Shown piece after piece: positions 1 through 39,471 of a stretch of DNA of 51,156 nucleotides. A program made the translations under genes and the position numbers. This DNA is from Dehalococcoidia bacterium (GTDB lineage Bacteria > Chloroflexota > Dehalococcoidia > SZUA-161 > SpSt-899): positions 1-51,156 of the forward strand of contig JALPYG010000001.1 in assembly GCA_023271215.1 (NCBI GenBank), written 5' to 3'. Each line of letters opens with the position of its first letter. The stretch's first letter is position 1. The notes below the pieces were generated by a model. That model was not told where the DNA came from, ran no database searches, and saw nothing but the letters and a program-made list of their open reading frames with translations.

Positions 1-1
1 T

Positions 2-502
2 GAACAGGGATTAGACAAGCCGAGAGGTATTTTTGTGTGCAGTATGTCGGATTTATTTGGCATAGGCATTCCTTTAGAATGGACTGAGGCAATACTAAAT
101 GCGATGGATAATAAACATGATCGTTTCTATATCCTGACAAAACAGCCCCAGAACCTGATCAAATTCTCGCCGTTTCCGGATAATTGTTTTGTTGGTTTTA
201 CCGCTACGACAAATGAGCAGATTCAATATGGCTTGGCCCATATCGCCGATGTAGAAGCGAGGGTTAAATATATCAGTTTTGAACCTCTGCTGGAAAAAGT
301 GTCGCTCCTTGCACCGGAGATGGTTGATTGGGTAATCATCGGTGGACAATCGGGGCCAAGTAGGTTTCACCCCCCTGAAGAATGGATTCAGGAAATAGAG
401 GATGCCTGCGATAAGTGTGGCATACCTGTTTTTGAGAAGAATAACTTGAGACCATCCGGGGCACTTAGACAGGAAATGGCGGAGGCAAATCATGGGAAAT
501 AG
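2..502 (+). CDS. Gp37/Gp68-family phage protein (DUF5131-like), 5' end cut by window edge
   Basis: The frame is open back to nt 2 (EQGLDKPRGIFVCSMSDLFG...). The blocks IFVxSMSDLF, YILTKQPQN, ISFEPLLE and DWVIIGGQSGP fit my recollection of this family. The next gene overlaps its 3' end. Confidence 0.7.
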   Translation, partial: EQGLDKPRGIFVCSMSDLFGIGIPLEWTEAILNAMDNKHDRFYILTKQPQNLIKFSPFPDNCFVGFTATTNEQIQYGLAHIADVEARVKYISFEPLLEKVSLLAPEMVDWVIIGGQSGPSRFHPPEEWIQEIEDACDKCGIPVFEKNNLRPSGALRQEMAEANHGK

Positions 503-689
503 TTTTATGCGAAAGTCATTGCCATCTGGGAAGCATGGATTCAGGTATTCCCACAAAGGGTATTGTAGTGTATGTGGTCAACAGGGTCCTACGGTATACT
601 GGGATGACACGATAGGCAGACATTATTTTGCTCTATGCTCCGACTGCTGCCAAATTATAATGGCAATCCATGAGAGTAAGGACCTTTGA
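492..689 (+). CDS. small CxxC...CxxC zinc-ribbon protein (family member 1 of 3)
   Basis: GGAGG lies upstream of the ATG. Motif CSVCGQQGPTVYWDD...ALCSDCC. Clear paralogue of 3921..4118 and 21714..21875. Confidence 0.6.
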   Translation: MGNSFMRKSLPSGKHGFRYSHKGYCSVCGQQGPTVYWDDTIGRHYFALCSDCCQIIMAIHESKDL

Positions 690-700
690 GGAGGCAAACG

Positions 701-838
701 ATGAGTAGGCCAATCTATAATTGCATCCATTGCTGGGAAGATTGTGATTGGGCGGGGATAGAGAGGCTAGTATGGAGCGAAGACGAATGCGAATTAGGAA
801 TTATCTACGAAAATGATGAGGTTGACGAGACGAGATGA
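701..838 (+). CDS. small Cys-rich protein (45 aa)
   Basis: Below the size cut-off of the ORF track. GAGGAGG SD lies about 6 nt upstream of ATG 701. Its stop overlaps the next start (ATGA at 835). Motif CIHCWEDCDW. Confidence 0.45.
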   Translation: MSRPIYNCIHCWEDCDWAGIERLVWSEDECELGIIYENDEVDETR

Positions 839-1032
839 GAAAACGCACCTCTCGCAAGTGGCCGATTCCGAACGACCAATGGGCGATTGTTCGGGGGGAG
901 TTGCGAAGGGTTGTTGCACGTGCCACAACCCCTAAACCGGATCATCCTTGCGGGGCCTGTGATTCTAGCAATTGGTGGCAGAGGAAAGATGGCGGATGGG
1001 TTTGCGGTCGATGTTATCCCCGGCCGTGGTAG
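835..1032 (+). CDS. small zinc-ribbon protein
   Basis: Motifs CGACDSSNWW...CGRCYP. ATGA-coupled to the upstream ORF. Confidence 0.55.
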   Translation: MRKRTSRKWPIPNDQWAIVRGELRRVVARATTPKPDHPCGACDSSNWWQRKDGGWVCGRCYPRPW

Positions 1033-1039
1033 TGAAGTA

Positions 1040-1935
1040 GAGAGGAGGCAGCGTTGAGTTTCGTCCAGTCTCGCTGGGCAATGCAAAGGTGAGGTCAAGT
1101 GAAGTGTGGTTGTACAGAGTACTGTAGAGCAAAGGCGGAGCAGAGTGGTGTGAAGTGCGGTCCAGCGCAGTTCAGTGGAGTAACGCGCGGCAGGGGTAAC
1201 ATTGCGTTGGGTCGCGTTTTGTAGCGCAAAGGCGAAGCAGGGCAGAGTCGTGCACGGTGTGGCGCTGAGTGTTGTACTGCAAGGGCAAGGTAACGTGTGG
1301 CTGTGTTTTGTTCAGTTGTGTGGGGTGAAGTGAAGTAAAGGCGGTGTTAAGCAGTGTGGACCAGCGCGGAGGTAACGCAAAGTGCGGTGGTGTGGGGCGT
1401 CGCAAAGGCAATGTAGCGTGGAGTTGTGTTTTGCTCGGTGGTGTCGGGTGAAGCGAAGTGAAGGCAGTGTGGTGTCTGGTGAAGCGAGGTGAAGGCAGCG
1501 TTGAGTTTCGTCCAGTCTCGCTGGGCAATGCAAAGGCGGGGTATAGTGAAGTGTAGTTAAGTGATGTAGAGCAAAGGCGGTGTTAAGCAGTGTGGACCAG
1601 CGCGGAGGTAGCGCTGAGCGCGGTGACGTGGTGTCGAGTGAAGCAAAGTAAAGGCGGTGCTGTGTTTAGTTGAGTCCTGTAAGGTATTGTGACATGCTGT
1701 AAGGTAAAGGCAGTGTTGAGTTGCGTGTGGTTTTGCTCGGCAATGTAAAGGCGGGGTATAGTGAAGTGTAGTTAAGTGATGTAGAGCAAAGGCGGTGTCA
1801 AGCAGTGTAACGCAAAGGCACAGCAAGGTAGGGTGAGGTGACGTTGCGTAATGTAAAGCAAAGGTGTGGTGTTGTATGGTGCAGCAAGGGCGAGGCTTGG
1901 CATGGCATAGCGAAGTAAAACAAAGGAGGTAAGCA
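1040..1935 (+). repeat. ~0.9-kb non-coding, C-depleted (G/T-rich on + strand) region of interleaved direct repeats
   Basis: No + strand ORF of 60 aa or more. An identical 43-bp repeat sits at 1047-1089 and 1494-1536. A 62-bp repeat sits at 1532-1593 and 1747-1808 (1 mismatch). A 38-bp repeat sits at 1337-1374 and 1573-1610. About 18 copies of a CAAAGGCGG-like core are spaced at irregular intervals of roughly 25-100 nt. Hand counts of several 60-nt lines give C near 13% and G near 40%. Confidence 0.8.
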
Positions 1936-1938
1936 AGA

Positions 1939-2550
1939 ATGTACCGTAGGTATCAAGTGGAACTTGAGACCATAACCGAGCTTCTGGGCACGCAACCAGT
2001 CCAAGAGATTCGGCAAGAGCATCTCCCTACTAGGGAGGATGAGGAGGTGTTTGAAGGTGCGGGTGAGGAGAAAGAGCGCCCCACAACCTTCTATGTCCAC
2101 GACGGTAAAATTTGTCTCATGGACTACCAAGTGAAAGGGTGGTTCAAGGAGGCCTTTGGCGAGTTTCCTCAGTTCACGGGGATTAAGGGGCGTACTAAGG
2201 AATGGGCCAGTGCAACCACCGTGAAGGGGCGAATTGACAAATGGTTGTTCATCTCCCCTCGGTATATTCCTTTTGTGCGGGGTGGCAGGGAGATAACGAA
2301 ACCCGAAAGTGTCCTGTCTAGGATCGTGAGAGGCATGGGGGTGGGCGGAGTGCCTCGTGTTGTCCCCGTTAATTCGGACTCTCTCGATCCAGGGGTGAGG
2401 ATAGCATTCCAGATCAAGATAAGGGAAAACTGCCCCATAGACATGGAAGCCCTCAAAGGAGTCCTCCCCTATGGAGAGGAGTTCGGGCTTCTTGGTTGGA
2501 GAAGCGCTGGCTTCGGGAGCTTCAAAGTGATAAGCATTCAAGAGGTCTGA
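1939..2550 (+). CDS. hypothetical protein with C-terminal glycine-rich loop (LLGWRSAGFGSF)
   Basis: AAAGGAGG SD precedes ATG 1939. It is the first real gene after the repeat region. The overlapping minus-strand ORF 1798..2541 is judged spurious. Confidence 0.7.
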   Translation: MYRRYQVELETITELLGTQPVQEIRQEHLPTREDEEVFEGAGEEKERPTTFYVHDGKICLMDYQVKGWFKEAFGEFPQFTGIKGRTKEWASATTVKGRIDKWLFISPRYIPFVRGGREITKPESVLSRIVRGMGVGGVPRVVPVNSDSLDPGVRIAFQIKIRENCPIDMEALKGVLPYGEEFGLLGWRSAGFGSFKVISIQEV

Positions 2551-2595
2551 ACACTACGCCCTTGCTGCACCTTTGTCTTAATTGGAAAGAGAGCG

Positions 2596-2946
2596 ATGAA
2601 GCGGATCTGCAAAGATAAGAAAGAGGACGAGTTCTATCTTTTTACTCCTGAAGAAAAAGAGGAGCTGGTAAAGATTGTGCATTTAGGCGAAAAGGCGCTC
2701 AAATTGTATGAGCTGACTCGGGAGTTGATGGAGAGAGCAAAGGTAGCCGGCGAGATTGGAAATCGGCAGGAGTTTATGGATATGTATAAAAAGGCACTTG
2801 AATGCCGCTTGCTTGCTACTAACACTGCTCTTGAAGGTGTAGAGAAACAGATTGAGTTTTATAGAGGCATTGCTCGGGTTGAGGGGTGGGAGATATCCTC
2901 AGAAGAGGCGATGGTTGAGGATAAGGATGGCAGTAACCAAGCCTAA
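2596..2946 (+). CDS. hypothetical helical/coiled-coil protein
   Basis: Plus-strand ORF in register with the operon, with charged heptad-like composition. Confidence 0.55.
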   Translation: MKRICKDKKEDEFYLFTPEEKEELVKIVHLGEKALKLYELTRELMERAKVAGEIGNRQEFMDMYKKALECRLLATNTALEGVEKQIEFYRGIARVEGWEISSEEAMVEDKDGSNQA

Positions 2947-3178
2947 GTGCCGCATTTGTGGCAAAGAGATTAAACCCTTTGCCCAGTTCTGGCTCAGGGA
3001 ACCGGACAGGTACAACACCGAAGGGTTTGCAGTTGAGCGAGGCAGGGCCATGCCGTTCTGCAGCTTAGGCTGCGTGTTTGGCTGGAGTGGGAAGATGCTG
3101 CGAGAGCAAAAGAAGGCAAGGGATAGGAAAGACCTGGAACTGGCTGAAGCTGGCGAGGAGGAGGCAAATTGTGGATGA
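2927..3178 (+). CDS. TRASH/FCS-type zinc-finger protein
   Basis: Internal ATG 2927 follows GAGGATAAGG. The CRICGKEI...FCSLGC spacing is typical of CxxC...FCSxxC fingers. It has an acidic C-terminus. Confidence 0.5.
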   Translation: MAVTKPKCRICGKEIKPFAQFWLREPDRYNTEGFAVERGRAMPFCSLGCVFGWSGKMLREQKKARDRKDLELAEAGEEEANCG

Positions 3179-3476
3179 TCTTAGTTCAAAACTAAGGAAA
3201 GATTTAGAAAGTATCTTGGGCGATGAGGTTGAGCAATCTAAGACTAAGAGAGAGGGGTTGGACGAAACTTTGGTTGCGGAATTATTTGACGAAGCTTTTG
3301 CATGCGGGGTTCCACTTGAAAAAGACAGGTCACAGCTTATGTTTGTGTTTAACATGTTGATAGAGAATCTTTCAATCCGTGATGCATTGGTACTAGCATT
3401 TGGTTTGGGAAGGGGGTATCAAAAAAGGATGTCGCAAATGGAGAAGGAAAATGGCAAATCTGGCGGGGATAGCTAA
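3171..3476 (+). CDS. hypothetical protein
   Basis: GTG 3171 follows GGAGGAGG and overlaps the upstream stop. The longer ATG 3078 start would overlap the previous gene by 100 nt. Confidence 0.45.
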   Translation: MDDLSSKLRKDLESILGDEVEQSKTKREGLDETLVAELFDEAFACGVPLEKDRSQLMFVFNMLIENLSIRDALVLAFGLGRGYQKRMSQMEKENGKSGGDS

Positions 3477-3927
3477 CGATGGGGAAAGCTGTGCTATAGA
3501 CGAACACGAGGTCAAGCGGCTGTATCTCGAAGAAAAACTGCCCATAAACCAGATTGCTAACACTCTCGGGGTACCGCGCTACGCTGACAAAATCAAAGGC
3601 ATTTTAGCAGCACAGGGGATCGAAATCCTCTGCTGGTGTGGACTCCCGCGGAGAGGGCATACCCGGTGCGACGGATGCGGCATCCTGGTTGGGCCCAAGC
3701 ATATCACGAAGACTGTTCAGCAATATGAGGGCAAGGGTTATTGCGATAGCTGTTTCGAAAGGCGAGTGAGAGGAGCGCCACCCGAGGGCTGGGATCGATT
3801 TTTAGGGATGACTGAAGATGATGATGACGACGAGGAGGAGGAATATATCGAGCTTGCCAACCTCGGCATGGAGGACTACGCGCGTAGACTGTGGGGAATC
3901 GAGCAGGAGGAGCATGAAAAATGGTAA
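3451..3927 (+). CDS. HTH plus Cys-rich (zinc-ribbon-like) protein with poly-acidic tail
   Basis: ATG 3451 follows GGAGAAGG. HTH-like segment LPINQIANTLGVPRY, Cys cluster CWCG...CDGCG...CDSC, and a DDDDDEEEE run. Confidence 0.55.
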   Translation: MANLAGIANDGESCAIDEHEVKRLYLEEKLPINQIANTLGVPRYADKIKGILAAQGIEILCWCGLPRRGHTRCDGCGILVGPKHITKTVQQYEGKGYCDSCFERRVRGAPPEGWDRFLGMTEDDDDDEEEEYIELANLGMEDYARRLWGIEQEEHEKW

Positions 3928-4118
3928 ATACATTTATCCACGTAACAGTCCACAACGATTTAGGTGACTTCGATTATTTTGCCAGAGGGTTTTGCAGTGT
4001 GTGTGGGAAGGAGAAGCCTGTCGTCAATTGGACAGATAAGCTGGGCACACGCAGCTTTGCATTGTGTCAGGGCTGTGCCGAGGCGATTGTGGTAATACAT
4101 CAGAGGCAAAACCGGTGA
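3921..4118 (+). CDS. small CxxC...CxxC zinc-ribbon protein (family member 2 of 3)
   Basis: CSVCGKEKPVVNWTDKLGTRSFALCQGCAEAIVVIH aligns residue-for-residue with 492..689. Confidence 0.6.
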   Translation: MVNTFIHVTVHNDLGDFDYFARGFCSVCGKEKPVVNWTDKLGTRSFALCQGCAEAIVVIHQRQNR

Positions 4119-4150
4119 ATACGAAAAGTGGCGCAAGAAGAGGAGCCAAA

Positions 4151-4444
4151 ATGAACAAGCGGGATTTGACGCCGGCCGAGAAGCTGTGGATAGAGGTTTT
4201 CGGACCTCGCGGCCTGCCTGAACTGGATGACAGGAAGGTAGCAGAAATCCTTGACAGCCTTCCTGACCGTGAGCGACTGGTGGTATACATGCGCTTTGGA
4301 GAGAAGGGGCATGGGCAGTCTTTCAGCAGTATTGGAAAGAAGCTCTCCCTATCGAAGGAGACGGTGCGGTTAAACTTGAAACAGGCCATACGTCATCTCC
4401 GGCACCCCAGCCGGCGCAAGGCGTGGGAGGAGGCGCGGAGATGA
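4151..4444 (+). CDS. sigma-70 region-4-like / LuxR-type HTH protein
   Basis: ATG 4151 follows GAGGAG. LPDRERLVVYMRFG...QSFSSIGKKLSLSKETVRLNLKQAIRHLR matches the region 4.2 HTH pattern. Confidence 0.65.
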   Translation: MNKRDLTPAEKLWIEVFGPRGLPELDDRKVAEILDSLPDRERLVVYMRFGEKGHGQSFSSIGKKLSLSKETVRLNLKQAIRHLRHPSRRKAWEEARR

Positions 4445-4764
4445 GAGGCCGGGATTGGTATACTGACTTCATGAACCGGACTTTTGAGGAACTCATGGAG
4501 CGCCTCGCTAAGGATTGTGAGAAGGTTTTTGGTGAATTTGATGCGTCAAGGATCATGGGGCAGCCCGGTCTGGCATTGAATAAAGGAGCGGCCTATCATA
4601 TGCTTGGTCTAGAGGAATCGGCCTCGGACGAGGAGGTAAAAAAACGGTACCTGAGCCTTGTCAAGCGGCTGCACCCAGATGTGGCCGGCAGGGAAACGGA
4701 GCACCTGTTCAAGCTCGTCCATGTGGCCTATGAGCAGATTTCGAAGGAAAGAGGCTGGAAATGA
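4441..4764 (+). CDS. J-domain (DnaJ-like) protein
   Basis: ATGA overlap with the upstream stop. YHMLGLEESASDEEVKKRYLSLVKRLHPDV contains the HPD tripeptide in J-domain context. Confidence 0.75.
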   Translation: MRGRDWYTDFMNRTFEELMERLAKDCEKVFGEFDASRIMGQPGLALNKGAAYHMLGLEESASDEEVKKRYLSLVKRLHPDVAGRETEHLFKLVHVAYEQISKERGWK

Positions 4765-5684
4765 TAAACCTAACAGAGAATGACAAAGAGGGACTACAGA
4801 GGATACTTGAATACGAGAACGCCACTGACCGAGATCCAGAGCATTTCTCTCAATTTGGCTGGAGCTGGGACACGGTCAGGGTTTGGCCGGCTACGCTTAA
4901 CCGGCTAATCCAGATGGGATTACTGGAGGTTGTCTCGCACAGTAACAGCTATCGGGGAATGAAGTTGACCCCGGAGGGCTATGCCATTGCCCAGAGCTTA
5001 GGTAACCCACAGGCTGCCGAGGATGAAGTCCCAGCGATTCCCGATAGCCTGCCGGAGGATATCTTCCAGGACATCGTAGGCCACGAGAAGATCAAGAAAT
5101 TGCTGAGAGCTGTTGTCCTCGCTGCAAAGCCGGTGCACGTGCTTCTCTCGGGACCGCCGGCGCTGGCAAAGAGTTTATTCCTCCTAGAGTTGGAGAGGGT
5201 GTTGGGCAGTCGTGCTCACTGGGCACTGGGGTCGGCGGTATCTAAAGCCGGCCTCCAGGAGATGCTTTTGGAATTCCGGCCTTACGTCTTGCTCATCGAC
5301 GAGCTCGATAAGATGGACGGCAGGGATCAGGCCGCCCTCTTGTCGGTGATGGAAGGGGGGGGAGTGAGCAGGACGAAGGTGGGACGGATGGCCGATGAGA
5401 AGATTGAATGCCGAGTGGTGGCAACGGTTAATGTCCTGGGGAAGCTTCCCCCGGAGCTGACTTCCAGATTTGCTGTCAAGCAAGTTCGCCCTTACACCTC
5501 AGAGGAGTTCAAGAAGGTGGTCGAAGGGGTGCTGCAGAGGCGTGAGGGAATGGAAGAGTCAGTAGCGCTGAGCATAGCTCAGAAGCTGGATGGACGGATC
5601 CAGGATGTGCGAGATGCTATCAGGGTGGCTCGTCTGGTGCCTCAGGTTGGGTTAGAGGAGGCAATAATGCTGCTCCTAGGTTGA
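4761..5684 (+). CDS. AAA+ ATPase with N-terminal winged-helix-like region
   Basis: ATGA overlap. Walker A-like LLSGPPALAKS (atypical Ala before Lys). Walker B VLLIDELDK. Downstream VVATVN sensor-like strand. Confidence 0.7.
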   Translation: MINLTENDKEGLQRILEYENATDRDPEHFSQFGWSWDTVRVWPATLNRLIQMGLLEVVSHSNSYRGMKLTPEGYAIAQSLGNPQAAEDEVPAIPDSLPEDIFQDIVGHEKIKKLLRAVVLAAKPVHVLLSGPPALAKSLFLLELERVLGSRAHWALGSAVSKAGLQEMLLEFRPYVLLIDELDKMDGRDQAALLSVMEGGGVSRTKVGRMADEKIECRVVATVNVLGKLPPELTSRFAVKQVRPYTSEEFKKVVEGVLQRREGMEESVALSIAQKLDGRIQDVRDAIRVARLVPQVGLEEAIMLLLG

Positions 5685-5833: not shown

Positions 5834-6763
5834 ATGTTTACTTGCAGCATATGTGGTAAAAAGTTTAAGACCATGCAGGCTCTTGGTGGACATATGTCCC
5901 ATGCCCACGTGCACGACAAGACCAAGAACCAACCCCCGGCTGAGCCTTCTCCTCCTCCTAGTCAGCCAACCGATCAGGTTCGTGAGGATGGGAATGTGCC
6001 CGAGAACAACGCCTCAGAGCTTGGTAAAGCTGTTTCGGGGGAGCCACCCCAGCCCACGGATAAGGAGCTCGGTGTCATGGACAGTATCCGGGAGCTACGG
6101 AACCGCGGCTACAGCCCCAAGCAAGTGAGGGAACAGTTTGAATATCCCCGTCAAACCGTGGACCGGGTATTTGCCGAATATATCCCGCCAGAGGGAAAAG
6201 TGGATGAGACAAGATCGAATCAGGATAAAAAGCGGGAGACAATGCCAGCGGTCTACAAGAAGGACGAGCGCACGAACCCAGAAGTGCTACTGCGGGGATT
6301 GGCAGATGGTGACCACGAGGCTGAACTGGAATTCCGGGGAATGATGAAGTTGAGAGCGGCGATGCTTATGGTCATGGACTTGATGAGTATTCAGAGGACA
6401 GCCGCAGAGGCTGATGCGCTCAGGATCAAACCAATCCTAGATTTGATGAAAGAGACTAGGCTGGAGCAAGACGCCGCCGCTGCCAGGGCCAAAGAATCCA
6501 GCAAAGACATAGCGGATCGTGCCGCCTATGAAGGGGCGAGAATACTGGCGGAGCAGGTGGTACCGGAGGTGCGGACGCTGATGGAGAAGCAGAAACCTGC
6601 TCCGGCTGGGAAGACTATACACGATCGCATGTTCGGTCCGATAGCCGATATGATGGGCCAGCAAATGGGGAACATGTTCAGCGGCATGTTTGGGATAAGT
6701 TCCGCTGGGCAGCAGCCCCAAGTTCCACCAGGTTGGGAATACGAAGAGGTGAAAGGAGAGTAA
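5834..6763 (+). CDS. C2H2 zinc-finger protein with Pro-rich linker, coiled coil and Met/Gly-rich C-terminus
   Basis: FTCSICGKKFKTMQALGGHMSHAH is a classical C-x2-C-x12-H-x4-H finger. The C-terminus reads MFGPIADMMGQQMGNMFSGMFG. Confidence 0.7.
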   Translation: MFTCSICGKKFKTMQALGGHMSHAHVHDKTKNQPPAEPSPPPSQPTDQVREDGNVPENNASELGKAVSGEPPQPTDKELGVMDSIRELRNRGYSPKQVREQFEYPRQTVDRVFAEYIPPEGKVDETRSNQDKKRETMPAVYKKDERTNPEVLLRGLADGDHEAELEFRGMMKLRAAMLMVMDLMSIQRTAAEADALRIKPILDLMKETRLEQDAAAARAKESSKDIADRAAYEGARILAEQVVPEVRTLMEKQKPAPAGKTIHDRMFGPIADMMGQQMGNMFSGMFGISSAGQQPQVPPGWEYEEVKGE

Positions 6764-6766
6764 GTA

Positions 6767-7009
6767 ATGGAGTTTCCACAGATGGGTGTCTCGGCCGAAG
6801 ACATGGAGCGAGCAAAACAGATAGGAGGATATTACACCGTGGTGATCCGGAAGTGCCATAAGGACAACAAATTCGAGGTGCAATTTAACCCCCGGACCGC
6901 TGAGGCTGCGGCGAATATCCCTCAACTCATCGACAACATGGTCCTGCAATTAGGTATCCAGATGAATACCTTTTTTGGGATTCAAGGAAAGATCGAGAAC
7001 GTGAAATAG
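6767..7009 (+). CDS. hypothetical small protein
   Basis: GAAAGGAG SD; 3 nt after the upstream stop. Confidence 0.55.
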   Translation: MEFPQMGVSAEDMERAKQIGGYYTVVIRKCHKDNKFEVQFNPRTAEAAANIPQLIDNMVLQLGIQMNTFFGIQGKIENVK

Positions 7010-7337: not shown

Positions 7338-7369
7338 GGGGAAACATCTGAAGGGATGTTCCCCCTTTT
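7338..7369 (+). terminator. intrinsic terminator
   Basis: GGGGAAACATC-tgaagg-GATGTTCCCCC followed by TTTT. Confidence 0.6.
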
Positions 7370-33617: not shown

Positions 33618-33840
33618 TAAAGAGGGGTATTCGTTCCCCAGCGTGGGAGCGGATACCCCTTTCTTTGTCTCCGCCCAGAGTTGGGCAAACCGGGCAAGGC
33701 AATAGGGGTGGCCGCCCCCAGAACTCGCCCAGAATCGGATTCTGGAGCTTCAGTTATTGTCCCGTATGCCCAGCCCGAAGCTGGGGAAGGGGAGGTCTGC
33801 CCAAATCTAAAGGGAAATAACCATAAAAGGCTAATCAATC

Positions 33841-33888
33841 CAGCCCGACCCTGGGCAGTCAGGAAGGGGGAAATCCGCCTGGAAAGGA
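33841..33888 (+). promoter_or_regulatory. leader cassette class A, copy 1 (diverged)
   Basis: CAGCCCGACCCTGGGCAGTCAGGAAGGGGGAAATCCGCCTGGAAAGGA ends 8 nt before ATG 33896. A half-copy sits at 33771-33808. Confidence 0.6.
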
Positions 33889-33895
33889 ACAGAAA

Positions 33896-34087
33896 ATGGA
33901 ATCAAAGGGTTATCCATGGCCGGCGTCAGCGCTTACGGCGCTTGAGATGAGGATCCTCTTTGACCTCAAAGAAGAGACTGGGATCCCGATAACCAGGCTC
34001 CTCTGTGAAGCGGTGCTAGAACTAAAGACGTACGATCAGGAATACATCGACAGATTGAACAACAAAAGAAAAGCAAGTGAGGGATAG
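33896..34087 (+). CDS. small protein, possibly RHH/HTH DNA-binding
   Basis: Preceded by leader cassette copy 1. Segment LEMRILFDLKEETGIPITRLLCEAVLEL. Confidence 0.5.
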   Translation: MESKGYPWPASALTALEMRILFDLKEETGIPITRLLCEAVLELKTYDQEYIDRLNNKRKASEG

Positions 34088-34136
34088 CCCGACCTTGGGC
34101 AAGATGGGAAAGGGAAGGTCTGCGAAAAACAAGGGG
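34086..34136 (+). promoter_or_regulatory. leader cassette class A, copy 2
   Basis: AGCCCGACCTTGGGCAAGATGGGAAAGGGAAGGTCTGCGAAAAACAAGGGG lies upstream of ATG 34145. Confidence 0.6.
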
Positions 34137-34144
34137 TAAAGCAA

Positions 34145-34315
34145 ATGGATAAAAGGCAAACCAGGCGATGGCTTAAAGCCCTAGAGATTGCAGAGAATCT
34201 CTTTGAGGATGAAGGTTACTCCAGCAACTACCTAGAGGAGATTAAGGACTTCATTCTCACAAGCAGGGAAGGTCTATCCGAACCTGAAGGGAAAGGAGAT
34301 GCCCATGCCAGCTAA
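34145..34315 (+). CDS. small hypothetical protein (56 aa)
   Basis: Below the track cut-off. Follows cassette copy 2. The next ORF overlaps its end. Confidence 0.45.
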   Translation: MDKRQTRRWLKALEIAENLFEDEGYSSNYLEEIKDFILTSREGLSEPEGKGDAHAS

Positions 34316-34478
34316 AGACTTGACTGGCAAGACAGTCTATGAGTTAGACTCCGAGGACTTTGAAAAGCTCTTTTGCAGGGGATGTAAAGAGAACGGCGGC
34401 TGTCCCAAAGACCCCAGGACAATGAGCGTGTGTCAAGTCATGATTGACAGCGGGATATGGTATCAAGTCAACCGATAA
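34305..34478 (+). CDS. small Cys-rich protein (57 aa)
   Basis: AAAGGAG lies 6 nt upstream of ATG 34305. Motif FCRGCKENGGCPKD...VCQV. Confidence 0.45.
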   Translation: MPAKDLTGKTVYELDSEDFEKLFCRGCKENGGCPKDPRTMSVCQVMIDSGIWYQVNR

Positions 34479-34494
34479 ATCAGAAGAAGCAATA

Positions 34495-34544
34495 AGCCCG
34501 ACCCTGGGCAAGTCGGGAGGGGGAAAGTTTGCCCGGAAAGGAGG
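34495..34544 (+). promoter_or_regulatory. leader cassette class A, copy 3
   Basis: AGCCCGACCCTGGGCAAGTCGGGAGGGGGAAAGTTTGCCCGGAAAGGAGG lies 9 nt before ATG 34554. Confidence 0.65.
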
Positions 34545-34553
34545 TGATTTGAA

Positions 34554-34829
34554 ATGGGACTCGATATCTCAACCTTCACCACATCGCCCATTGAAGAGCC
34601 GGAATCCCTGGCAGCCTATGAGTTCGCTCAAGCTCTGGCAGGGGAATGCTCTTGTATCGGTGAAGGTATGGCCTTCGGGTGGTTTACCAGAATAGAGGTT
34701 ATGTGGGTGTTAGATGCCCACACTATATCGAAACGTCTGATCCGCGAGGAGAGGGTTCAAATCCAGGACTGGATAAACAGCCTTCCCTGGGATGAGCATG
34801 ACTGCATTCGGCTTTACTTCAACTGGTAA
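34554..34829 (+). CDS. small hypothetical protein
   Basis: Follows cassette copy 3. Confidence 0.55.
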   Translation: MGLDISTFTTSPIEEPESLAAYEFAQALAGECSCIGEGMAFGWFTRIEVMWVLDAHTISKRLIREERVQIQDWINSLPWDEHDCIRLYFNW

Positions 34830-34847
34830 GCGCTAAACATAAGGGAT

Positions 34848-34896
34848 AGCCCGACCCTGGGCAAGTCGGGAACGGGAAGGTCTGCCCGGAAAGGAG
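34848..34896 (+). promoter_or_regulatory. leader cassette class A, copy 4
   Basis: AGCCCGACCCTGGGCAAGTCGGGAACGGGAAGGTCTGCCCGGAAAGGAG lies 6 nt before ATG 34903. Confidence 0.65.
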
Positions 34897-34902
34897 ATAA
34901 AA

Positions 34903-35157
34903 ATGGACGCTAGATTGAGGCAGGAGATTGAGGAGTTATTAGCCAAAGCTACCTTACGAGAATTCTGCACCGACCTGCAGCCCTACTTTAACCGGATTAT
35001 GCCTCTCAATGATGAGGCAGAGGATGCCTTGACCGCTATCTTTCGGGGTTACCTGGCATCATCCTCATCACCCGTCAGGGCAATGTGGAAAGCCTTTATT
35101 GTAGGACAGGCCTGGCAAAGGGTAGTGGATGAAGCTGAGCTGGCAAGCAGGGAGTAG
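34903..35157 (+). CDS. small hypothetical protein
   Basis: Follows cassette copy 4. Confidence 0.55.
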   Translation: MDARLRQEIEELLAKATLREFCTDLQPYFNRIMPLNDEAEDALTAIFRGYLASSSSPVRAMWKAFIVGQAWQRVVDEAELASRE

Positions 35158-35232
35158 AGAGATTAGCGCAAGGAAGGGGCGGGATCGGTAGGGGAACTGC
35201 CCTAAAAATCAAGACAGAAAGGAGGTGAAACC

Positions 35233-35550
35233 ATGCCTATCAGATGGAGTGCCCTCAAGGTGAGTGAGGCTATGGATAGGGTGGAACACCAGATCAACCT
35301 GGCCGAGGTGTTTCTTCCCGAGGCCAGGTCAATAGCAAGCCAGGTCAGGCAAGTCGACAACCTGCCGGGCTACCTGGATGACCGCCTTCGCCGGCTGATC
35401 TATGCGATTGAGCGGCTAGACGAGGTTAAGGCGTCCATAGAAGCCATCCGCAAGGCTATCCCCGACGGAGCGATAGAGGCGGAGCGAAAGCGTCTACGGC
35501 GTGGCAGCCAGCAATCGCTGATCCCTGGACCTGACCAGGGACAGGTCTAA
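35233..35550 (+). CDS. small hypothetical protein, paralogue of 38009..38329
   Basis: The N-terminal MPIRWSALKVSEAMD and C-terminal IEA(I/V)RKAIPDGAIEAERKRLR.GSQQSLI are shared. It also shares the leader GGGGAACT.C.C(C/T)(A/T)AAAATCAAGACAGAAAGGAGGTGAAA. Confidence 0.6.
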   Translation: MPIRWSALKVSEAMDRVEHQINLAEVFLPEARSIASQVRQVDNLPGYLDDRLRRLIYAIERLDEVKASIEAIRKAIPDGAIEAERKRLRRGSQQSLIPGPDQGQV

Positions 35551-35553
35551 GAG

Positions 35554-35602
35554 TTGCTTGGTTTGAAAGGATAGGTCTGCCCAAAATCTGAGAGAAAGGG
35601 GG
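35554..35602 (+). promoter_or_regulatory. leader cassette class B, copy 1
   Basis: TTGCTTGGTTTGAAAGGATAGGTCTGCCCAAAATCTGAGAGAAAGGGGG lies upstream of GTG 35611. Confidence 0.6.
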
Positions 35603-35610
35603 TGATAGAA

Positions 35611-36081
35611 GTGACAAGCCAGTTGAGCCTGTTTGAAGAGGTTGAGGTGATGGGAGAGGTTGAGAAGCCGACGCCGGTAAGGGCGGGGAACCGAGTTGTT
35701 GAAATCCCCCTCCGCAAGAGGCGCAGGGAGGCTCTAAAGAAGCTGGTGGAGCTACTCCGTCAGCTTGAGGGGAAGGACATCTACATCGGTGCCCACTTTG
35801 GCCCACAGAACCACTTCTGGGTAAGGAATCTGAAGTTGGGGCGGTTAAGGGTAGGGAATCTATTGAGTAATGATGGCCTGCCGTCCGTCGTAGTCCTCTG
35901 GGGTAACCGAGAGGGGAGCATCCGGATATTCACCGACCAGGTGGTCAATCTCCGGCAGCAGGAATACCAGGGTTACACTCAGTGGCTGCTCGACTTCTGG
36001 AATGGATTCGGTGCGTATCCCATTGATCCTTACCGACCCAGAGGCTATGTAAGCCTGGAGATTGTCAGGTTTAAGGACTAA
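35611..36081 (+). CDS. hypothetical protein
   Basis: GTG 35611 is better spaced from AAAGGGGG than GTG 35602. Confidence 0.5.
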   Translation: MTSQLSLFEEVEVMGEVEKPTPVRAGNRVVEIPLRKRRREALKKLVELLRQLEGKDIYIGAHFGPQNHFWVRNLKLGRLRVGNLLSNDGLPSVVVLWGNREGSIRIFTDQVVNLRQQEYQGYTQWLLDFWNGFGAYPIDPYRPRGYVSLEIVRFKD

Positions 36082-36104
36082 CCAAAGTCTGACCTTCAGA
36101 GTTA

Positions 36105-36206
36105 AGCCCGGCCTTGGGCAAGCTGGGAAAGGGAAAATCTGCCCGGAAGGAGAAGGCCGAGGAATTTTGAAGGGGTAACTCTGCCCAAAATCTGAAAGAA
36201 AGGAGG
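36105..36206 (+). promoter_or_regulatory. leader cassette class A copy 5 immediately followed by class B copy 2
   Basis: AGCCCGGCCTTGGGCAAGCTGGGAAAGGGAAAATCTGCCCGGAAGGAG, then TTTTGAAGGGGTAACTCTGCCCAAAATCTGAAAGAAAGGAGG. Two TATAAT hexamers follow at 36214-36228. Confidence 0.6.
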
Positions 36207-36244
36207 TCAACAAAGGATATAATGATATAATGAAAGGAGGAGAG

Positions 36245-36439
36245 ATGAGTATAAATCTAGAAGATAAGTTGAATGAGGCTGAGCGTAAAGCTCACGATGC
36301 GCTCAGCCGCTACAAGTTCATAATGTTTGGGTATTGGGCGAGTATATGGACGCATCTCAACGACGTTGGAGAGTTCAAAAGGCCAAATCCCTTCCGGGGG
36401 TATATCGCCTTGGCTCGACAATTAAAGGAGGAGAAATGA
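36245..36439 (+). CDS. small hypothetical protein
   Basis: ATG 36245 follows AAAGGAGG. The ATG 36230 alternative lies inside that SD. Confidence 0.5.
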   Translation: MSINLEDKLNEAERKAHDALSRYKFIMFGYWASIWTHLNDVGEFKRPNPFRGYIALARQLKEEK

Positions 36440-36565
36440 TGTAAAGAAGAACTAGCAGAGACCAAAAAAACAAGAAAGAGGAAGGAGGAGAGATGACAGT
36501 GTAAAAGAATTAGCCAAAGGCCAATCAAGAGGCCAATCAAGCAAAAAGAGAAAGGAGGAAGAGAA

Positions 36566-36874
36566 ATGAAAACCAAGAGAACTAAACTAACCAAGCAAAT
36601 GTACCTCGATGCTTTGGCGCGCGATGACGAAACTCTCGCCCTCATACGGCGCAATCGCCCCGAGGGGGAGGGGATGCTCGATACTCCTGAAAAGCGTGCC
36701 TGCTTCCGCGTGGGCTTTGACGCTGGACCAGGAGCCCAGACCGGGCGCTTCAGCCATCCTGACACGGAGAAGGAGCGCTTTCACGGGTGGCGGGCCCTCC
36801 ATCCCAAGAAGGCGACCCCGAATGACGCCTTCTACGCTCAGCTGGGAGCGAATCTGGCTGAAGCGTGGGAATAG
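36566..36874 (+). CDS. small hypothetical protein
   Basis: GAAAGGAGG SD. The overlapping ORF 36609..36962 is judged spurious. Confidence 0.5.
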   Translation: MKTKRTKLTKQMYLDALARDDETLALIRRNRPEGEGMLDTPEKRACFRVGFDAGPGAQTGRFSHPDTEKERFHGWRALHPKKATPNDAFYAQLGANLAEAWE

Positions 36875-37022
36875 AGTGGGGAATTGGGGGCCGAGCGGTT
36901 CAAATCCGCCGGCCCGAGAAGCGCATGATGGGGCTATAGGGGAATCAAATGGGGCTGGTTAACCGGTACTCACGGCCTCATAAGCCGGTTAGGGGCCTCC
37001 GGGTGAACAAAAGGCGCCAGCC

Positions 37023-37070
37023 AGCCCGACCCTGGGCAAGTCGGGAAGGGGGAAGTCTGCCCGAAAGGAG
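37023..37070 (+). promoter_or_regulatory. leader cassette class A, copy 6 (drives a 5-codon uORF)
   Basis: AGCCCGACCCTGGGCAAGTCGGGAAGGGGGAAGTCTGCCCGAAAGGAGG is followed by ATG AGA ACA AGG GAC TAG at 37076-37093. Confidence 0.6.
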
Positions 37071-37131
37071 GTGAGATGAGAACAAGGGACTAGTCAGAGA
37101 CCAAGAGCAACAAAAAGGAAAAGGAGGAGAG

Positions 37132-37578
37132 ATGTATAAAAACACATTCGATCAACTAATCGAGACAGGACAAGAGCTGAGCGAAAAACAGGCGCAAGCG
37201 AGGGAAAGCTATGATGAGTTAATGAAGAAACTGAACGAGCGTTTGAAAAGCATCACTGTAGAGGGTCCGACTCTGTACTACACAGTTCACGAGTGGGACG
37301 AACGAATATATGGCGGCACGCTCAAACACCGTAAGGCCCAACTTGCCCTCCATTTCTGGGAAGAGGGTGCTTATCTGGAGCTCGAGGAGATGTGGGAAGA
37401 TGAATGTTACCAGTGGCAAACTGACACCCTGATCCACCCCTCTCTTGAGGTTATGCTATCAGTCAGCGAAAACCTTGACAAGGCACTAGACTACTTTTTA
37501 GAAAAGATGCAGCAGTGGGGCACCGATCACGACCAAGCTATTGCGGTGCTGGCTGAGCTGGCTGCGAAACTACAGTAG
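37132..37578 (+). CDS. hypothetical protein
   Basis: AAAAGGAGGAGAG SD; helical, acidic composition. Confidence 0.55.
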   Translation: MYKNTFDQLIETGQELSEKQAQARESYDELMKKLNERLKSITVEGPTLYYTVHEWDERIYGGTLKHRKAQLALHFWEEGAYLELEEMWEDECYQWQTDTLIHPSLEVMLSVSENLDKALDYFLEKMQQWGTDHDQAIAVLAELAAKLQ

Positions 37579-37692
37579 ACCCGATGCCCACCGGTTAGGG
37601 GCCTCCGGACAAAAGGCCCCGAAAGGAGTAGAGATGGAAGCACGGGATTAACCAGAAACCAGAAGCAAGAACAACAAGAGGAGAATCTAGAA

Positions 37693-37920
37693 ATGAAAAC
37701 CAAATTCAAGCGGTATACATACCACTGCCCAGAGTTGCTTCCTGTGGAGAACACAGAGGAGTGGATCGAGGCTGAGGTGTACCAAGCAGCGGGTTTCGAC
37801 CCTAAAGACGAAGAGGTTTGGGTAGGCCGACTGATCTCCGACTGGGAAGGGCACCCAAAAGGGGCACTTGTCCTAAGTGGGTTAACCAGTAGTGGCCACC
37901 CCTTTGCGGTAGAGTGCTGA
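37693..37920 (+). CDS. small hypothetical protein
   Basis: AGAGGAG SD, preceded by uORF 37634-37651. Confidence 0.5.
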   Translation: MKTKFKRYTYHCPELLPVENTEEWIEAEVYQAAGFDPKDEEVWVGRLISDWEGHPKGALVLSGLTSSGHPFAVEC

Positions 37921-38008
37921 TTGTATACCGGTTTCGGGGTCTCCGGCCAAAAGGCCCCACCTAAAAGGGGAACTACACCCAAAATCAAGACAGAAAGGAG
38001 GTGAAATC

Positions 38009-38329
38009 ATGCCTATCAGATGGAGTGCCCTCAAGGTAAGTGAGGCTATGGACCAAGCAGAACATCAGGTTAACCTAGCCAAGGTGTTTCTTGCTGAGGC
38101 CAAGTCAATAGCAAAGAAGGCTAAGGGCATAGACAACCTTCCCGGATATATTGACCACGAGCTGAGTCGATTCATCTGGGAACTGGAGGGGGCAATCGGA
38201 GGTGGTTCAGCCGAGCCAGTAGGACGACTGAAGGCAACCATAGAAGCCGTTCGCAAGGCTATCCCCGACGGAGCGATAGAGGCGGAGCGAAAACGTCTAC
38301 GGCATGGCAGTCAGCAATCGCTGATTTAA
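38009..38329 (+). CDS. small hypothetical protein, paralogue of 35233..35550
   Basis: See 35233..35550. The central third is divergent. Confidence 0.6.
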   Translation: MPIRWSALKVSEAMDQAEHQVNLAKVFLAEAKSIAKKAKGIDNLPGYIDHELSRFIWELEGAIGGGSAEPVGRLKATIEAVRKAIPDGAIEAERKRLRHGSQQSLI

Positions 38330-38338
38330 GAATCGCTC

Positions 38339-38383
38339 GGTTCCAACGGATAGCTCTGCCCAAAATCTGAGAGAAAGGAGAGG
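38339..38383 (+). promoter_or_regulatory. leader cassette class B, copy 3
   Basis: GGTTCCAACGGATAGCTCTGCCCAAAATCTGAGAGAAAGGAGAGG lies upstream of ATG 38387. Confidence 0.6.
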
Positions 38384-38386
38384 AAC

Positions 38387-38857
38387 ATGACAAGTATCTT
38401 TTTCATCGGGCACAATGGGGAACGAGTTGTGGATTCCATGACGACGCTCAAACAGATAGAGGAAGTCAAAAAACTGGAATGCACAATGGAACATGAGGGT
38501 GAGCGAATCAGATGGGATATGCTTGATGACCCTACAGAACCTCGATCGCTGTTTCAAGCTATTGTAGCTGATCGCAGGTTGCGAGTCGATCAGAACACGC
38601 TGATGGCTGATCGGCCACCAATCGCCGTTGTGACTGCTGTCGCTGGCAAAGCAGTGCGCATGGAGTTCTATGAAGGCCACGATGCGCTTCGCCTGACCCA
38701 CGATTTGCGCACCAAGGAGTTGCAGGGAAAGCCAGTGCCTCGCTGGCTGACATCTGACCCGCAAGCTTATAACCCATACCGGTTCCTGCAATCAATTGGG
38801 TTCCCTGTACCTGATGAGTTGATTGAAGCTAAGGATAATGAGCAGAAAACAACTTGA
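38387..38857 (+). CDS. hypothetical protein
   Basis: Follows class B copy 3. Confidence 0.55.
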   Translation: MTSIFFIGHNGERVVDSMTTLKQIEEVKKLECTMEHEGERIRWDMLDDPTEPRSLFQAIVADRRLRVDQNTLMADRPPIAVVTAVAGKAVRMEFYEGHDALRLTHDLRTKELQGKPVPRWLTSDPQAYNPYRFLQSIGFPVPDELIEAKDNEQKTT

Positions 38858-38866
38858 GACATGACA

Positions 38867-38917
38867 GCTTGCCTAGTTTGAAAGGATAGGTCTGCCCAAA
38901 ATCTCAAGTAAAGGAGG
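38867..38917 (+). promoter_or_regulatory. leader cassette class B, copy 4
   Basis: GCTTGCCTAGTTTGAAAGGATAGGTCTGCCCAAAATCTCAAGTAAAGGAGG lies upstream of TTG 38925. It is nearly identical to copy 1. Confidence 0.6.
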
Positions 38918-38924
38918 TCAACAA

Positions 38925-39413
38925 TTGAATACAACCAAGACAATCGAGAAAGGCATCTCCGAGTTAGTGGGTGTCTTCACTGATCCTATCATTGCGTATC
39001 CCAGCCCATGGAGGGAAGATATCCCCCAGTGGATCAAGGATCAAATAAAGATGGAACGCCTCGTGATGAACATGAAGGTTCTCAGGGGAGAACAGCCAAC
39101 CGGGACCGATGCCGAAGCCCTGGCCTACCTTATCCCGGCCAGCCTCGAGCACCCGATCGGTAGAGACTGGACGGATATCTACATGTATCTGGTTACCACA
39201 GTATCTATCAGGGCTGGTAAAGAGCTACCGGAGAATATCCGAGTGGAGACCCTCAGCGAATACCTCATGCGAAAGCTCAATCACCTCAAGTCCTGGCTGT
39301 ATCAGCAGCGAGTGAAGGCAAGGCTGGAGCGAGAGCGAGGCGAGAGGCGAAAAATGAAAGAGGAAGAGATAGCGCGGAAAAGGACAGAACAGTTGGCGCT
39401 ATTCGAGTTCTAG
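38925..39413 (+). CDS. hypothetical protein with basic/acidic coiled C-terminus (last gene of the element)
   Basis: TTG start follows AAAGGAGG. A strong terminator follows the gene. Confidence 0.55.
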   Translation: MNTTKTIEKGISELVGVFTDPIIAYPSPWREDIPQWIKDQIKMERLVMNMKVLRGEQPTGTDAEALAYLIPASLEHPIGRDWTDIYMYLVTTVSIRAGKELPENIRVETLSEYLMRKLNHLKSWLYQQRVKARLERERGERRKMKEEEIARKRTEQLALFEF

Positions 39414-39434
39414 TTTGCCAAACTTGGGGAATCA

Positions 39435-39471
39435 GGGGCCGGGGGTTCAACTCCCCCGGCCCCCTTTTTTT
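39435..39471 (+). terminator. strong intrinsic terminator with T-loop-like loop
   Basis: GGGGCCGGGGG-TTCAACT-CCCCCGGCCCC (11-bp perfect stem), then C and T7. Confidence 0.85.

Follow-up and report, generated by a model that had tools for sequence, protein, structure and literature searches.

Non-tailed double-stranded DNA viruses of bacteria are, to our knowledge, few and small. The Pleolipoviridae of haloarchaea and the Plasmaviridae, with Acholeplasma phage L2, are enveloped viruses, temperate or chronic, whose hosts have no rigid wall; their genomes span 7-17 kb, their virions are built from membrane proteins, they leave the cell by budding, and we know of no capsid or terminase genes in them. 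Fuselloviridae SSV1 is integrative, encodes an AAA+ ATPase and small hydrophobic virion proteins that are proteolytically matured, and also exits by budding. Sphaerolipoviridae and Matsushitaviridae (P23-77, SH1), some of which are temperate, combine small single-jelly-roll capsids with an internal membrane that holds many small membrane proteins. Dehalococcoides, and Dehalococcoidia in general, have no peptidoglycan wall. The IME1 elements of Dehalococcoides, of 21-28 kb, carry a Zot/pI-like FtsK-family ATPase and no tailed-phage hallmarks, with a tyrosine recombinase at the 5′ end, a replication module at the 3′ end, five transmembrane protein groups, CARDB and PEP-CTERM proteins and 14 conserved orthologous groups (Nesbo et al., bioRxiv 10.64898/2026.09.15.751708). 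IME1 dominates KB-1 viromes in which filamentous particles were seen, and a lifestyle of budding or extrusion has been proposed for it (10.64898/2026.09.15.751708). Here we analyze a stretch of 51,156 nucleotides from a Dehalococcoidia bacterium (contig JALPYG010000001.1, positions 1 to 51,156; the window), in which positions 1-39.4 kb are the bulk of an integrated, temperate mobile element that continues beyond the left edge.

It belongs to a host-restricted family. Its regulation and replication genes resemble those of phages, its late module of about 17 kb is conserved and targeted to the membrane, and it encodes no known encapsidation machinery. We propose, as a reading to which we give an even chance, that it is a temperate, non-tailed, membrane-assembling and self-sufficient virus-like element, in which the late module would build an extracellular membrane-derived particle or surface structure. 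A preliminary description of this DNA had offered two readings, a non-tailed virus with a membrane or an integrative element that remodels the cell surface, and had preferred both to a tailed phage; the absence of hallmark genes and the relatives described below support that hedged view.

Searches of all window proteins against Pfam and PHROGs found no terminase, portal, capsid, tape-measure, tail, Zot, FtsK/HerA, relaxase or VirB4 gene. This agrees with the earlier statement that a terminase, portal, HK97 capsid, tape measure and tail genes could not be recognised; canonical terminase, portal or capsid genes in the window, named there as the observation that would count against it, were searched for by profile and none was found. 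For the large terminase there was no Pfam or PHROG match, and the only Walker-A protein is an AAA+ ATPase of 307 amino acids (aa); a Walker-A scan of the 39 kb returned this ATPase as the sole genuine P-loop protein, with a variant motif, GPPALAKS, that is invariant in the family. No window protein matched a portal profile, and the 791-aa protein, which was modelled, matched DUF192 only. The HK97 capsid likewise had no profile match, and the family core holds no conserved alpha+beta protein of 280-450 aa. Matches to tail genes were limited to coiled-coil and FN3 noise against 'tail needle' and 'minor tail' PHROGs (E = 1e-7 to 1e-8). Inoviridae are marked by a pI/Zot morphogenesis ATPase and a small ssDNA genome; Zot (PF05707) had no match in the window, and the element measures at least 39 kb. 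As for the double-jelly-roll viruses (Tectiviridae, Corticoviridae and relatives), there was no profile match to a double-jelly-roll capsid or an A32/FtsK-HerA ATPase, and no second P-loop protein; Pfam likewise gave no relaxase, VirB4 ATPase or coupling protein of the type IV secretion system kind, the AAA+ protein again being the lone P-loop protein. A megablast search of 25 kb against 50,697 deposited phage genomes gave no match, and tblastn against phage genomes gave none for the jelly-roll protein and, for the AAA+ protein, weak matches only, to unannotated gut contigs. Against PDB sequences, the jelly-roll profile, the extein of the intein-containing protein and the 791-aa protein found nothing beyond DUF192. 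The three open reading frames (ORFs) that the preliminary description had put first for checking encode a generic jelly roll (8347-9021), a RuvB/MCM-like AAA+ protein (4761-5684) and a protein matching DUF192 only (22825-25200).

The element is part of a large family that appears not to have been described before and that is confined to Dehalococcoidia (Chloroflexota). The family is common: there are 1,421 AAA+ homologues, of which those with a named source are almost all from Dehalococcoidia/Chloroflexota, and a GTDB scan with one genome per species gave 65 AAA+ loci, with Dehalogenimonas genomes among the carriers. All GTDB loci with at least 45% AAA+ identity are from Dehalococcoidia/Chloroflexota except two probably mis-binned contigs, and below that identity the scan found homologues in archaea that share the AAA+ protein only. 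A near-identical contig from a Dehalococcoidia metagenome-assembled genome (MAG; JALPXR010000002.1) has a 99% identical AAA+ protein. Cultured members are Dehalogenimonas alkenigignens IP3-3 (KQ758903.1) and Dehalococcoides mccartyi VS (CP001827.1, 218-240 kb, locus L159), a KB-1 metagenome contig also carries a family member, and syntenic elements occur in dozens of MAGs. No description of the family was found in the searchable literature, which did not cover 2012 work on a 'Siphoviridae-like' Dehalococcoides prophage.

Gene order is shared across the family. Next to host genes stand a serine recombinase, a gene of about 310 aa and a helix-turn-helix (HTH) repressor, all on the minus strand, followed by cro-like and Gp3-like genes and then either an O-like initiator with a DnaC-like loader or a DUF3854 primase. 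After these come (sigma-70 region 4), J-domain, AAA+ and C2H2/HTH genes, small proteins, two or three tiny Met-rich transmembrane proteins, the jelly roll, three membrane proteins, a fibre with the N-terminus MxGxFY(I/V)E and variable beta-rich proteins. The order continues with an anchored S8 protease, anchored beta-sandwich proteins, a short Zn-ribbon tyrosine recombinase, a DUF192(-ArdC) membrane protein, (GHKL-SprT), a winged-HTH partner and (Zn-ribbon plus clamp), and it closes with homologues of the window genes at 35602 and 38925. The window has this syntenic core from the J-domain gene through the two terminal genes. In the relatives the serine recombinase end lies 6-8 kb upstream of the AAA+ gene, with only lysogeny and replication genes between, and in several MAGs as well as Dehalogenimonas this recombinase is immediately adjoined by host genes. 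A complete relative, rebuilt from two loci of one groundwater contig that share an identical 9,324-bp overlap (merged length 32,242 bp), measures 29.8 kb from the serine recombinase to the 38925-like gene, and its left arm holds only immunity/lysogeny and replication genes by Pfam and PHROGs, with no hallmark gene. Since the left arms of relatives hold none, we expect no hallmark genes upstream of the window either. The preliminary description had cautioned that the missing left end might hide such genes. The truncation is real, but relatives largely dispose of this caution, since their left arm consists of genes for a serine recombinase, a repressor and replication, beyond which lies host DNA; in part it still applies to the window copy, whose left 4 kb they do not share.

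Hydropathy predicts 14 membrane proteins in the window, with segments in all four of the regions where small or tail-anchored membrane proteins had been proposed (7.8-10.6, 21.4-22.1, 25.2-26.5 and 29.4-30.3 kb). It places a single C-terminal anchor in seven window proteins, which is Met-rich in six, with Met making up as much as 58% of an anchor. The consensus in relatives is approximately DMFSxMMPMIMMxMMMAxxMPMxKG, of which the window tails are looser Met-rich variants (7851-8078, 8096-8308, 9415-9909, 10109-10639, 17674-18948, 18945-19373 and 29889-30260), and the anchor also occurs in related loci (L159, L070, L071, L002, L014 and L023). Its bearers are otherwise unrelated: tiny proteins, beta-sandwich proteins, the 10109-like protein, the 29889-30260 protein and, in variant form, the subtilase. 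Among 13 relatives, 27 of the 122 transmembrane segments downstream of the AAA+ gene are at least 30% Met (25 of them C-terminal), against none of 52 upstream. No Pfam or NCBIfam model or known sorting signal matches these tails. We speculate that the Met-rich C-terminal anchor may act in sorting or assembly as a signal not described before, linked to the anchored subtilase that the element also encodes, and could thereby be of interest by itself as a new protein-sorting signal. The subtilases of D. mccartyi VS and D. alkenigignens share 57-59% identity with that of the window.

The jelly-roll protein stands in the same conserved stretch. Its gene most likely starts at 8347, as called on the near-identical NCBI contig. 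The longest mechanical ORF, 8158-9021, masks the tiny membrane protein gene 8096-8308, a paralogue of 7851-8078. The protein has no signal peptide and no transmembrane segment, and ends in a nearly invariant basic tail, PYGRKARRLV, in the alignment. Its family is small and self-contained: clustering at 50% identity yields 118 clusters in a set of 1.84 billion representatives, and full-length members are all 190-250 aa. Foldseek matches to the model (E = 1e-5 to 3e-3, TM 0.3-0.44) include capsids of picornavirus (VP3), nanovirus, luteovirus, circovirus and CRESS-DNA viruses, and also C1q/TNF-like and collagen heads, carbohydrate-binding modules and fibre tips. Because these neighbours are mixed, the predicted fold is compatible with a capsid or matrix role and is not diagnostic of one. 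The C2H2 protein is conserved directly 3′ of the AAA+ gene and looks helical from its sequence.

Further downstream, the module turns to fibre- and adhesin-like proteins. Thirteen ORFs in related loci begin with the MxGxFY(I/V)E motif of the fibre-like protein. The adhesin-like position is hypervariable between relatives; in the window it holds the 1,867-aa protein, for which Pfam gives Pur_ac_phosph_N, PhoD_N and fn3. Between the 10109-like protein and the protease, genes keep their N-terminal motifs and differ among relatives in C-terminal parts and length, which is the pattern expected for receptor-binding or adhesion proteins. Two of the small beta-rich proteins, 20181-20558 and 20618-21160, have homologues in a related locus (L002). 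Of the structural-looking proteins named in the preliminary description, Pfam and the repeats support the fibre, the FN3 protein and the protease, whereas the CARDB and discoidin labels were not reproduced, also in scans of single family members: Pfam finds nothing in 18945-20039 and just a marginal F5/8-type-C match (E = 0.095) in 20618-21160. Its mobile-element functions (Gp37/Gp68, recombinase, clamp, intein, J-domain and AAA+ proteins) were all found again by Pfam or PHROGs. At 19373-19530, two small beta-rich genes are separated by a tandem repeat with a unit of 68 bp (2.3 copies, 96% identical), and this unit holds a ribosome-binding site and an ATG.

The family marker is the AAA+ protein, whose profile matches RuvB (1e-13) and MCM2 (5e-12) in the PDB. 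As a RuvB/MCM-like double-stranded DNA translocase it could package DNA. A replication role fits it equally well, given its pairing with a J-domain protein and an Asgard homologue that adjoins a PCNA gene. This full-length homologue, from a Candidatus Borrarchaeum MAG (locus L048, 8041-10897), is 38% identical including the N-terminal domain. Further homologues that share the AAA+ protein only, 32-44% identical, lie in Nitrososphaeria and Thermoplasmata (L049-L059), mostly in cellular contexts. We considered whether the archaeal homologues mark related archaeal proviruses and rejected this, as their surroundings are mostly ordinary cellular ones and the Asgard locus alone resembles a mobile element.

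The short tyrosine recombinase occupies the middle of the element. Its counterparts in D. mccartyi VS and D. alkenigignens share 59-63% identity with it (62.5% in IP3-3) and stand at the same place. That it marks the junction of two tandem elements was rejected, since it holds the same internal position in both of these and in the complete groundwater relative. The 791-aa protein next to it was predicted as multidomain (AlphaFold2 pLDDT 72), with Foldseek matches to DUF192 structures only; relatives have ArdC-N and metallopeptidase domains at this position (ArdcN in L115, L070 and L159), and the DUF192-ArdC gene of D. mccartyi VS is annotated 'LtrC-like'. The 934-aa protein has a DxGxG motif and an N-box, IVQN|SLDE, which is split exactly by a 436-aa LAGLIDADG intein (Cys1 ... 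HN/Ser+1; DNA 26671-27978); its weak Pfam matches are HATPase_c_3 (E = 0.0025) and SprT-like (E = 0.0028). The intein is absent from the homologue in the complete relative (56% identity, locus L115). The gene at 30263-30892 probably encodes a winged-helix DNA binder; in relatives its homologue lies directly or within a few genes downstream of the recombinase, and in the window about 7.5 kb downstream. Short recombinase and 30263-like partner together occur in at least 350 metagenome loci and are very common in sediment and groundwater. The Zn-ribbon/clamp pair is kept in D. mccartyi VS and in the mini-elements described below, and the terminal genes 35602-36081 and 38925-39413 stand in the same order in D. 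mccartyi VS and form the right end of the complete relative. In the D. mccartyi VS copy (L159, 12075-15932), four minus-strand cargo genes that have no window counterpart lie between the 30263-like and 31216-like genes. Paralogue pairs inside the window element are 35233-35550/38009-38329, 492-689/3921-4118 and 25235-25990/25977-26504.

A set of mini-elements of about 7-10 kb carries a serine recombinase and a 277-aa gene, both on the minus strand, directly followed by the short Zn-ribbon tyrosine recombinase and a 30263-like gene, in at least 16 loci (including L111, L130, L133, L126, L127, L134, L150, L152, L153 and L157). Longer mini-element loci add the Zn-ribbon protein and the clamp, and the late module is absent from them. 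The right arm of the window therefore also exists as an independent integrative unit. The mini-elements could be satellites or the ancestral backbone.

At the borders, a greedy ORF call places about 57-60 co-directional genes on the plus strand of 1-39,413 and finds nothing convincing on the minus strand, so that the co-direction in the preliminary description holds and its count of more than 60 was slightly generous. GC skew is strongly positive across 1-39.4 kb and changes sign at about 39.4 kb; GC skew and GC content both shift at the hairpin 39435-39463. We place the right border at about 39.46 kb because 38925-39413 is the family's terminal gene and is followed by this hairpin and T-run. 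The hairpin (loop TTCAACT) was considered as a tRNA 3′ fragment and hence an att remnant, an origin that we rejected given its perfect stem and T-run, which are terminator-like. The element extends to the left because the N-terminus of DUF5131 is truncated at the window edge. The left 4 kb, with DUF5131, the Zn-ribbon proteins and a repeat array, has no counterpart in relatives, and among the genes of 1939-4118 only 3400-3927 has a homologue, a weak one, in a relative. The array (1040-1930) has the core GCAAAGGC(G/A)G, a GC skew of 0.34 and no Rfam match, and its sequence makes it a candidate iteron or origin region. The sigma-70 region 4 protein is a candidate late-gene regulator. Rfam and tRNA scans gave no match, and exact-sequence look-ups for two window proteins returned no record.

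To the right, the minus-strand genes are taken to be host genes: cupin, pyrE, pyrF, an HTH_17 protein, a GNAT-like protein (so labelled from its sequence), enoyl-CoA hydratase and a group II intron reverse transcriptase. The stretch 39470-41805, which separates the element from pyrE and pyrF, has a GC content of about 0.45 and holds an N-terminal fragment of an insertion-sequence-type transposase (39741-39998, minus strand) and two minus-strand ORFs with no label; it may be a remnant of another mobile element. On the host side, 43605-48218 (minus strand; 1,537 aa) joins an N-terminal, excisionase-like HTH_17 domain to a C-terminal AdoHcyase_NAD / 2-Hacid_dh-like NAD-binding domain, and the group II intron reverse transcriptase/maturase gene (50366-51079, minus strand) is cut by the right end of the window.

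Table 1. Features of the element in the window, from left to right.
Feature	Position	Strand	Evidence and remarks
DUF5131 (phage Gp37/Gp68-like)	35-502	+	Pfam PF07505 1.9e-27, profile positions 75-214/243; phrog_2045
Three small Cys-rich, Zn-ribbon-like proteins	492-689, 686-838, 835-1032	+	Translations; no family matches
C-poor repeat array	1040-1930	.	About 0.9 kb, non-coding, plus strand almost without C; several degenerate direct-repeat families
Early/regulatory genes	1939-2550, 2596-2946, 3078-3476, 3400-3927, 3921-4118	+	No Pfam/PHROG matches
Sigma-70 region 4 protein	4064-4444	+	PF04545 3.8e-13; position kept in relatives
J-domain (DnaJ) protein	4423-4764	+	PF00226 4.7e-11; present in 31 related loci
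AAA+ ATPase with N-terminal winged-helix-like domain, 307 aa	4761-5684	+	Pfam MCM/AAA/RuvB_N
C2H2 zinc-finger/HTH coiled-coil protein, Gly/Met/Gln-rich C-terminus	5834-6763	+	PF13912; homologues in 26 loci
Three small conserved soluble proteins	6767-7009, 7170-7508, 7524-7745	+	Found also in 5-14 related loci
Two tandem tiny proteins	7851-8078, 8096-8308	+	Gln/Gly/Pro-rich N-terminus, Met-rich C-terminal transmembrane anchor; tandem paralogues in relatives
Jelly-roll protein	8347-9021	+	AlphaFold2 pLDDT 82.8; predicted 44-residue disordered Pro-rich N-arm, single jelly roll of about 180 aa
Conserved membrane proteins	9415-9909 (two transmembrane segments), 9909-10106, 10109-10639 (beta-rich, C-terminal anchor)	+	Homologues in 13-16 loci
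Fibre-like protein	10639-11577	+	35-aa coiled-coil repeats (105-bp), N-terminal MxGxFY(I/V)E, C-terminal globular part
Variable adhesin-like region	11602-17657	+	131-aa protein and 1,867-aa protein (12054-17657) with about 17 FN3-like repeats
S8 subtilase, Met-rich C-terminal membrane anchor	17674-18948	+	PF00082 1.7e-34; NCBIfam mycosin-like
Four small beta-rich proteins	18945-19373 (anchored), 19527-20039, 20181-20558, 20618-21160	+	Hydropathy; sequence
Small proteins	21173-22138	+	Membrane proteins among them: 21455-21751, 21872-22138
Short tyrosine recombinase	22135-22812	+	PF00589; catalytic domain only, R..HxxR..H..Y present, inserted Zn ribbon
791-aa membrane protein	22825-25200	+	PF02643 DUF192, followed by a transmembrane helix and by helical and alpha/beta domains
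Two paralogous N-terminally anchored proteins	25235-25990, 25977-26504	+	Translation; hydropathy
GHKL-type ATPase-like and SprT-like HExxH protein, 934 aa	26506-29310	+	Extein against phrog_6077 1.2e-22
Two more C-terminally anchored proteins	29433-30260	+	Hydropathy
Conserved recombinase partner	30263-30892	+	In 51/80 recombinase-anchored metagenome loci; weak PadR match
Zn-ribbon protein and DnaN-type sliding clamp	31216-32094 and 32238-33536	+	Clamp with acidic repeat tail
Right arm of small genes	33681-39413	+	Paralogues 35233-35550/38009-38329; terminal genes 35602-36081, 38925-39413
Hairpin, 11-bp perfect GC stem and T-run	39435-39463	+	Directly after last gene

Together these observations suggest how a membrane-assembling, virus-like element might work. 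We hypothesize that late proteins would enter the cytoplasmic membrane of the wall-less host through the shared Met-rich C-terminal anchor and that the subtilase may mature them. The genome would be recruited by the C2H2 protein, the basic tail of the jelly-roll protein and the ArdC-like membrane protein, the AAA+ ATPase would serve in DNA translocation or replication, and the variable fibre and FN3 proteins would mediate attachment. The particle would leave by budding or extrusion, for which lysis genes need not be present; this is plausible because Dehalococcoidia have no peptidoglycan wall. A more specific version, which we put forward tentatively and with considerable doubt, is that the family is a new lineage of temperate enveloped non-tailed Dehalococcoidia viruses. 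Here the Met-rich anchor (~MMPMIMMxMMMAxxMPMxKG) would gather envelope proteins that the subtilase matures, the jelly roll would be a matrix or nucleocapsid protein, the AAA+ protein would replace a packaging ATPase, and the mini-elements would be satellites or the ancestral replicon.

Several points weigh against the viral proposal. Particles, excision and a circular form would be predictions from the genes of the element; none of the retrieved related loci is a circular contig. Structure predictions cover two of about 40 unassigned proteins (8347-9021 and 22825-25200), and the jelly-roll match is generic, in that both capsids and non-capsid folds match the model at TM 0.3-0.44. The AAA+ protein may be replicative rather than a packaging motor because its nearest matches are RuvB and MCM and its Asgard homologue neighbours PCNA. 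ArdC-like and SprT-like domains are typical of conjugative elements. Lastly, IMG/VR holds one close relative among 2.9 million contigs; scans of it with the single AAA+ or jelly-roll protein returned no relatives, and the variability of the jelly-roll alignment precluded a pattern scan.

A rival reading is a non-viral element similar to an integrative conjugative or mobilizable element or a 'plasmid-vesicle', whose late module would decorate or remodel the cell surface by means of adhesins, membrane proteins and the anchored protease, and whose DNA would move through contact or vesicles instead of a dedicated virion. We consider this less likely than the viral proposal; it is served by the ArdC-N and metallopeptidase domains in the DUF192 protein of relatives, the SprT-like domain in the GHKL protein, the giant FN3-repeat protein and fibre-like adhesins, the failure to recognise a capsid or packaging ATPase, and the near absence of the family from IMG/VR. 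Conjugative elements with ArdC do share its ssDNA-binding ArdC-N and metallopeptidase domains, surface adhesins and integrases with our element; however, they differ in that the window has no relaxase, VirB4 or coupling protein, its sole P-loop protein being the AAA+ ATPase. The phage-like cI/Cro, O/P-like replication and sigma-70 region 4 genes in one long co-directional operon also argue against a non-viral element, as does the cytoplasmic jelly roll with its basic tail, which is kept in the core.

An element of satellite type would bring its own accessory and surface proteins and be encapsidated by a helper virus, whether tailed or not. No capsid or packaging genes are present, as such an element would have it, and small relatives keep only the serine and short tyrosine recombinases, the winged-HTH partner, the Zn-ribbon protein and the clamp, so that the backbone can exist without the late module. 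However, the element, with a length above 39 kb and a complete relative of 30 kb, is far larger than known satellites, it has its own conserved late module of about 17 kb, and no helper-related genes were recognised, which makes this improbable. An ordinary tailed prophage, with hallmarks upstream of the window or too divergent to detect, is more improbable still: the left end of the window copy is missing, its left 4 kb is not matched in relatives and most proteins were examined by sequence profiles alone, but relatives end at the serine recombinase beside host genes 6-8 kb upstream of the AAA+ gene, hallmark genes are lacking throughout the complete relative of 29.8 kb, the AAA+ protein is the sole P-loop ATPase, and the unexplained proteins above 400 aa, namely the 791-aa DUF192 protein and the GHKL extein, are neither portal- nor terminase-like.

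We give hardly any credence to membership in the IME1 family, since the ATPase here is RuvB/MCM-like with no Zot match, the element is at least 39 kb long with a mid-element recombinase and with replication genes before the late module, and the words 'protease', 'peptidase', 'DnaJ' and 'AAA' are absent from the main text of the IME1 preprint. In outline the two are nevertheless alike. Both have Dehalococcoidia hosts (Dehalococcoides/Dehalogenimonas), are integrated in a temperate style without Caudoviricetes hallmarks, place several small hydrophobic or transmembrane proteins after the ATPase, and have anchored beta-sandwich proteins, a serine recombinase and a primase(-helicase), the last two being found in the relatives of our element. 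They differ in the ATPase, which is Zot/pI-like in IME1 and preceded by a J-domain protein here; in the anchored S8 protease, jelly roll, mid-element recombinase with DUF192/ArdC-like protein, GHKL-SprT protein and clamp that our family adds; and in size, 21-28 kb against 30 to more than 39 kb, with an order of recombinase and replication genes that is not matched. By this comparison IME1 appears to be the only close published analogue that we found, and its description would set the window element apart from it.

If the virus-like reading is true, a lineage of 30-40 kb free of hallmark genes would add to the diversity of bacterial viruses, and it would strengthen the idea that wall-less, archaeal-like envelopes host archaeal-style budding viruses. 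The family, uncharacterised as far as can be told, is widespread, and because it occurs in cultured dechlorinators used in bioremediation (D. mccartyi VS and Dehalogenimonas) a laboratory test is directly possible. With a single close relative in IMG/VR, it almost always escapes standard virus finders and is a blind spot in the viromics of subsurface Chloroflexota.

Among known viruses, Sphaerolipoviridae and Matsushitaviridae need two vertical single-jelly-roll capsids and an A32/FtsK-HerA ATPase, whereas here one single jelly roll was modelled (8347-9021), with the ectodomain of 10109-10639 as a second candidate of sphaerolipovirus type, and no such ATPase is present; capsid proteins of these families were not among the top structural matches of the jelly roll. 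SSV1 differs in its archaeal host, its integrase type and its gene order, and its VP1 (phrog_11172) had no match among window proteins. Pleolipoviridae and Plasmaviridae gave no PHROG match either, and to their plan our element adds a jelly roll, a subtilase and long fibre and FN3 proteins. By analogy, these two families of enveloped viruses could be the closest functional model for the late module.

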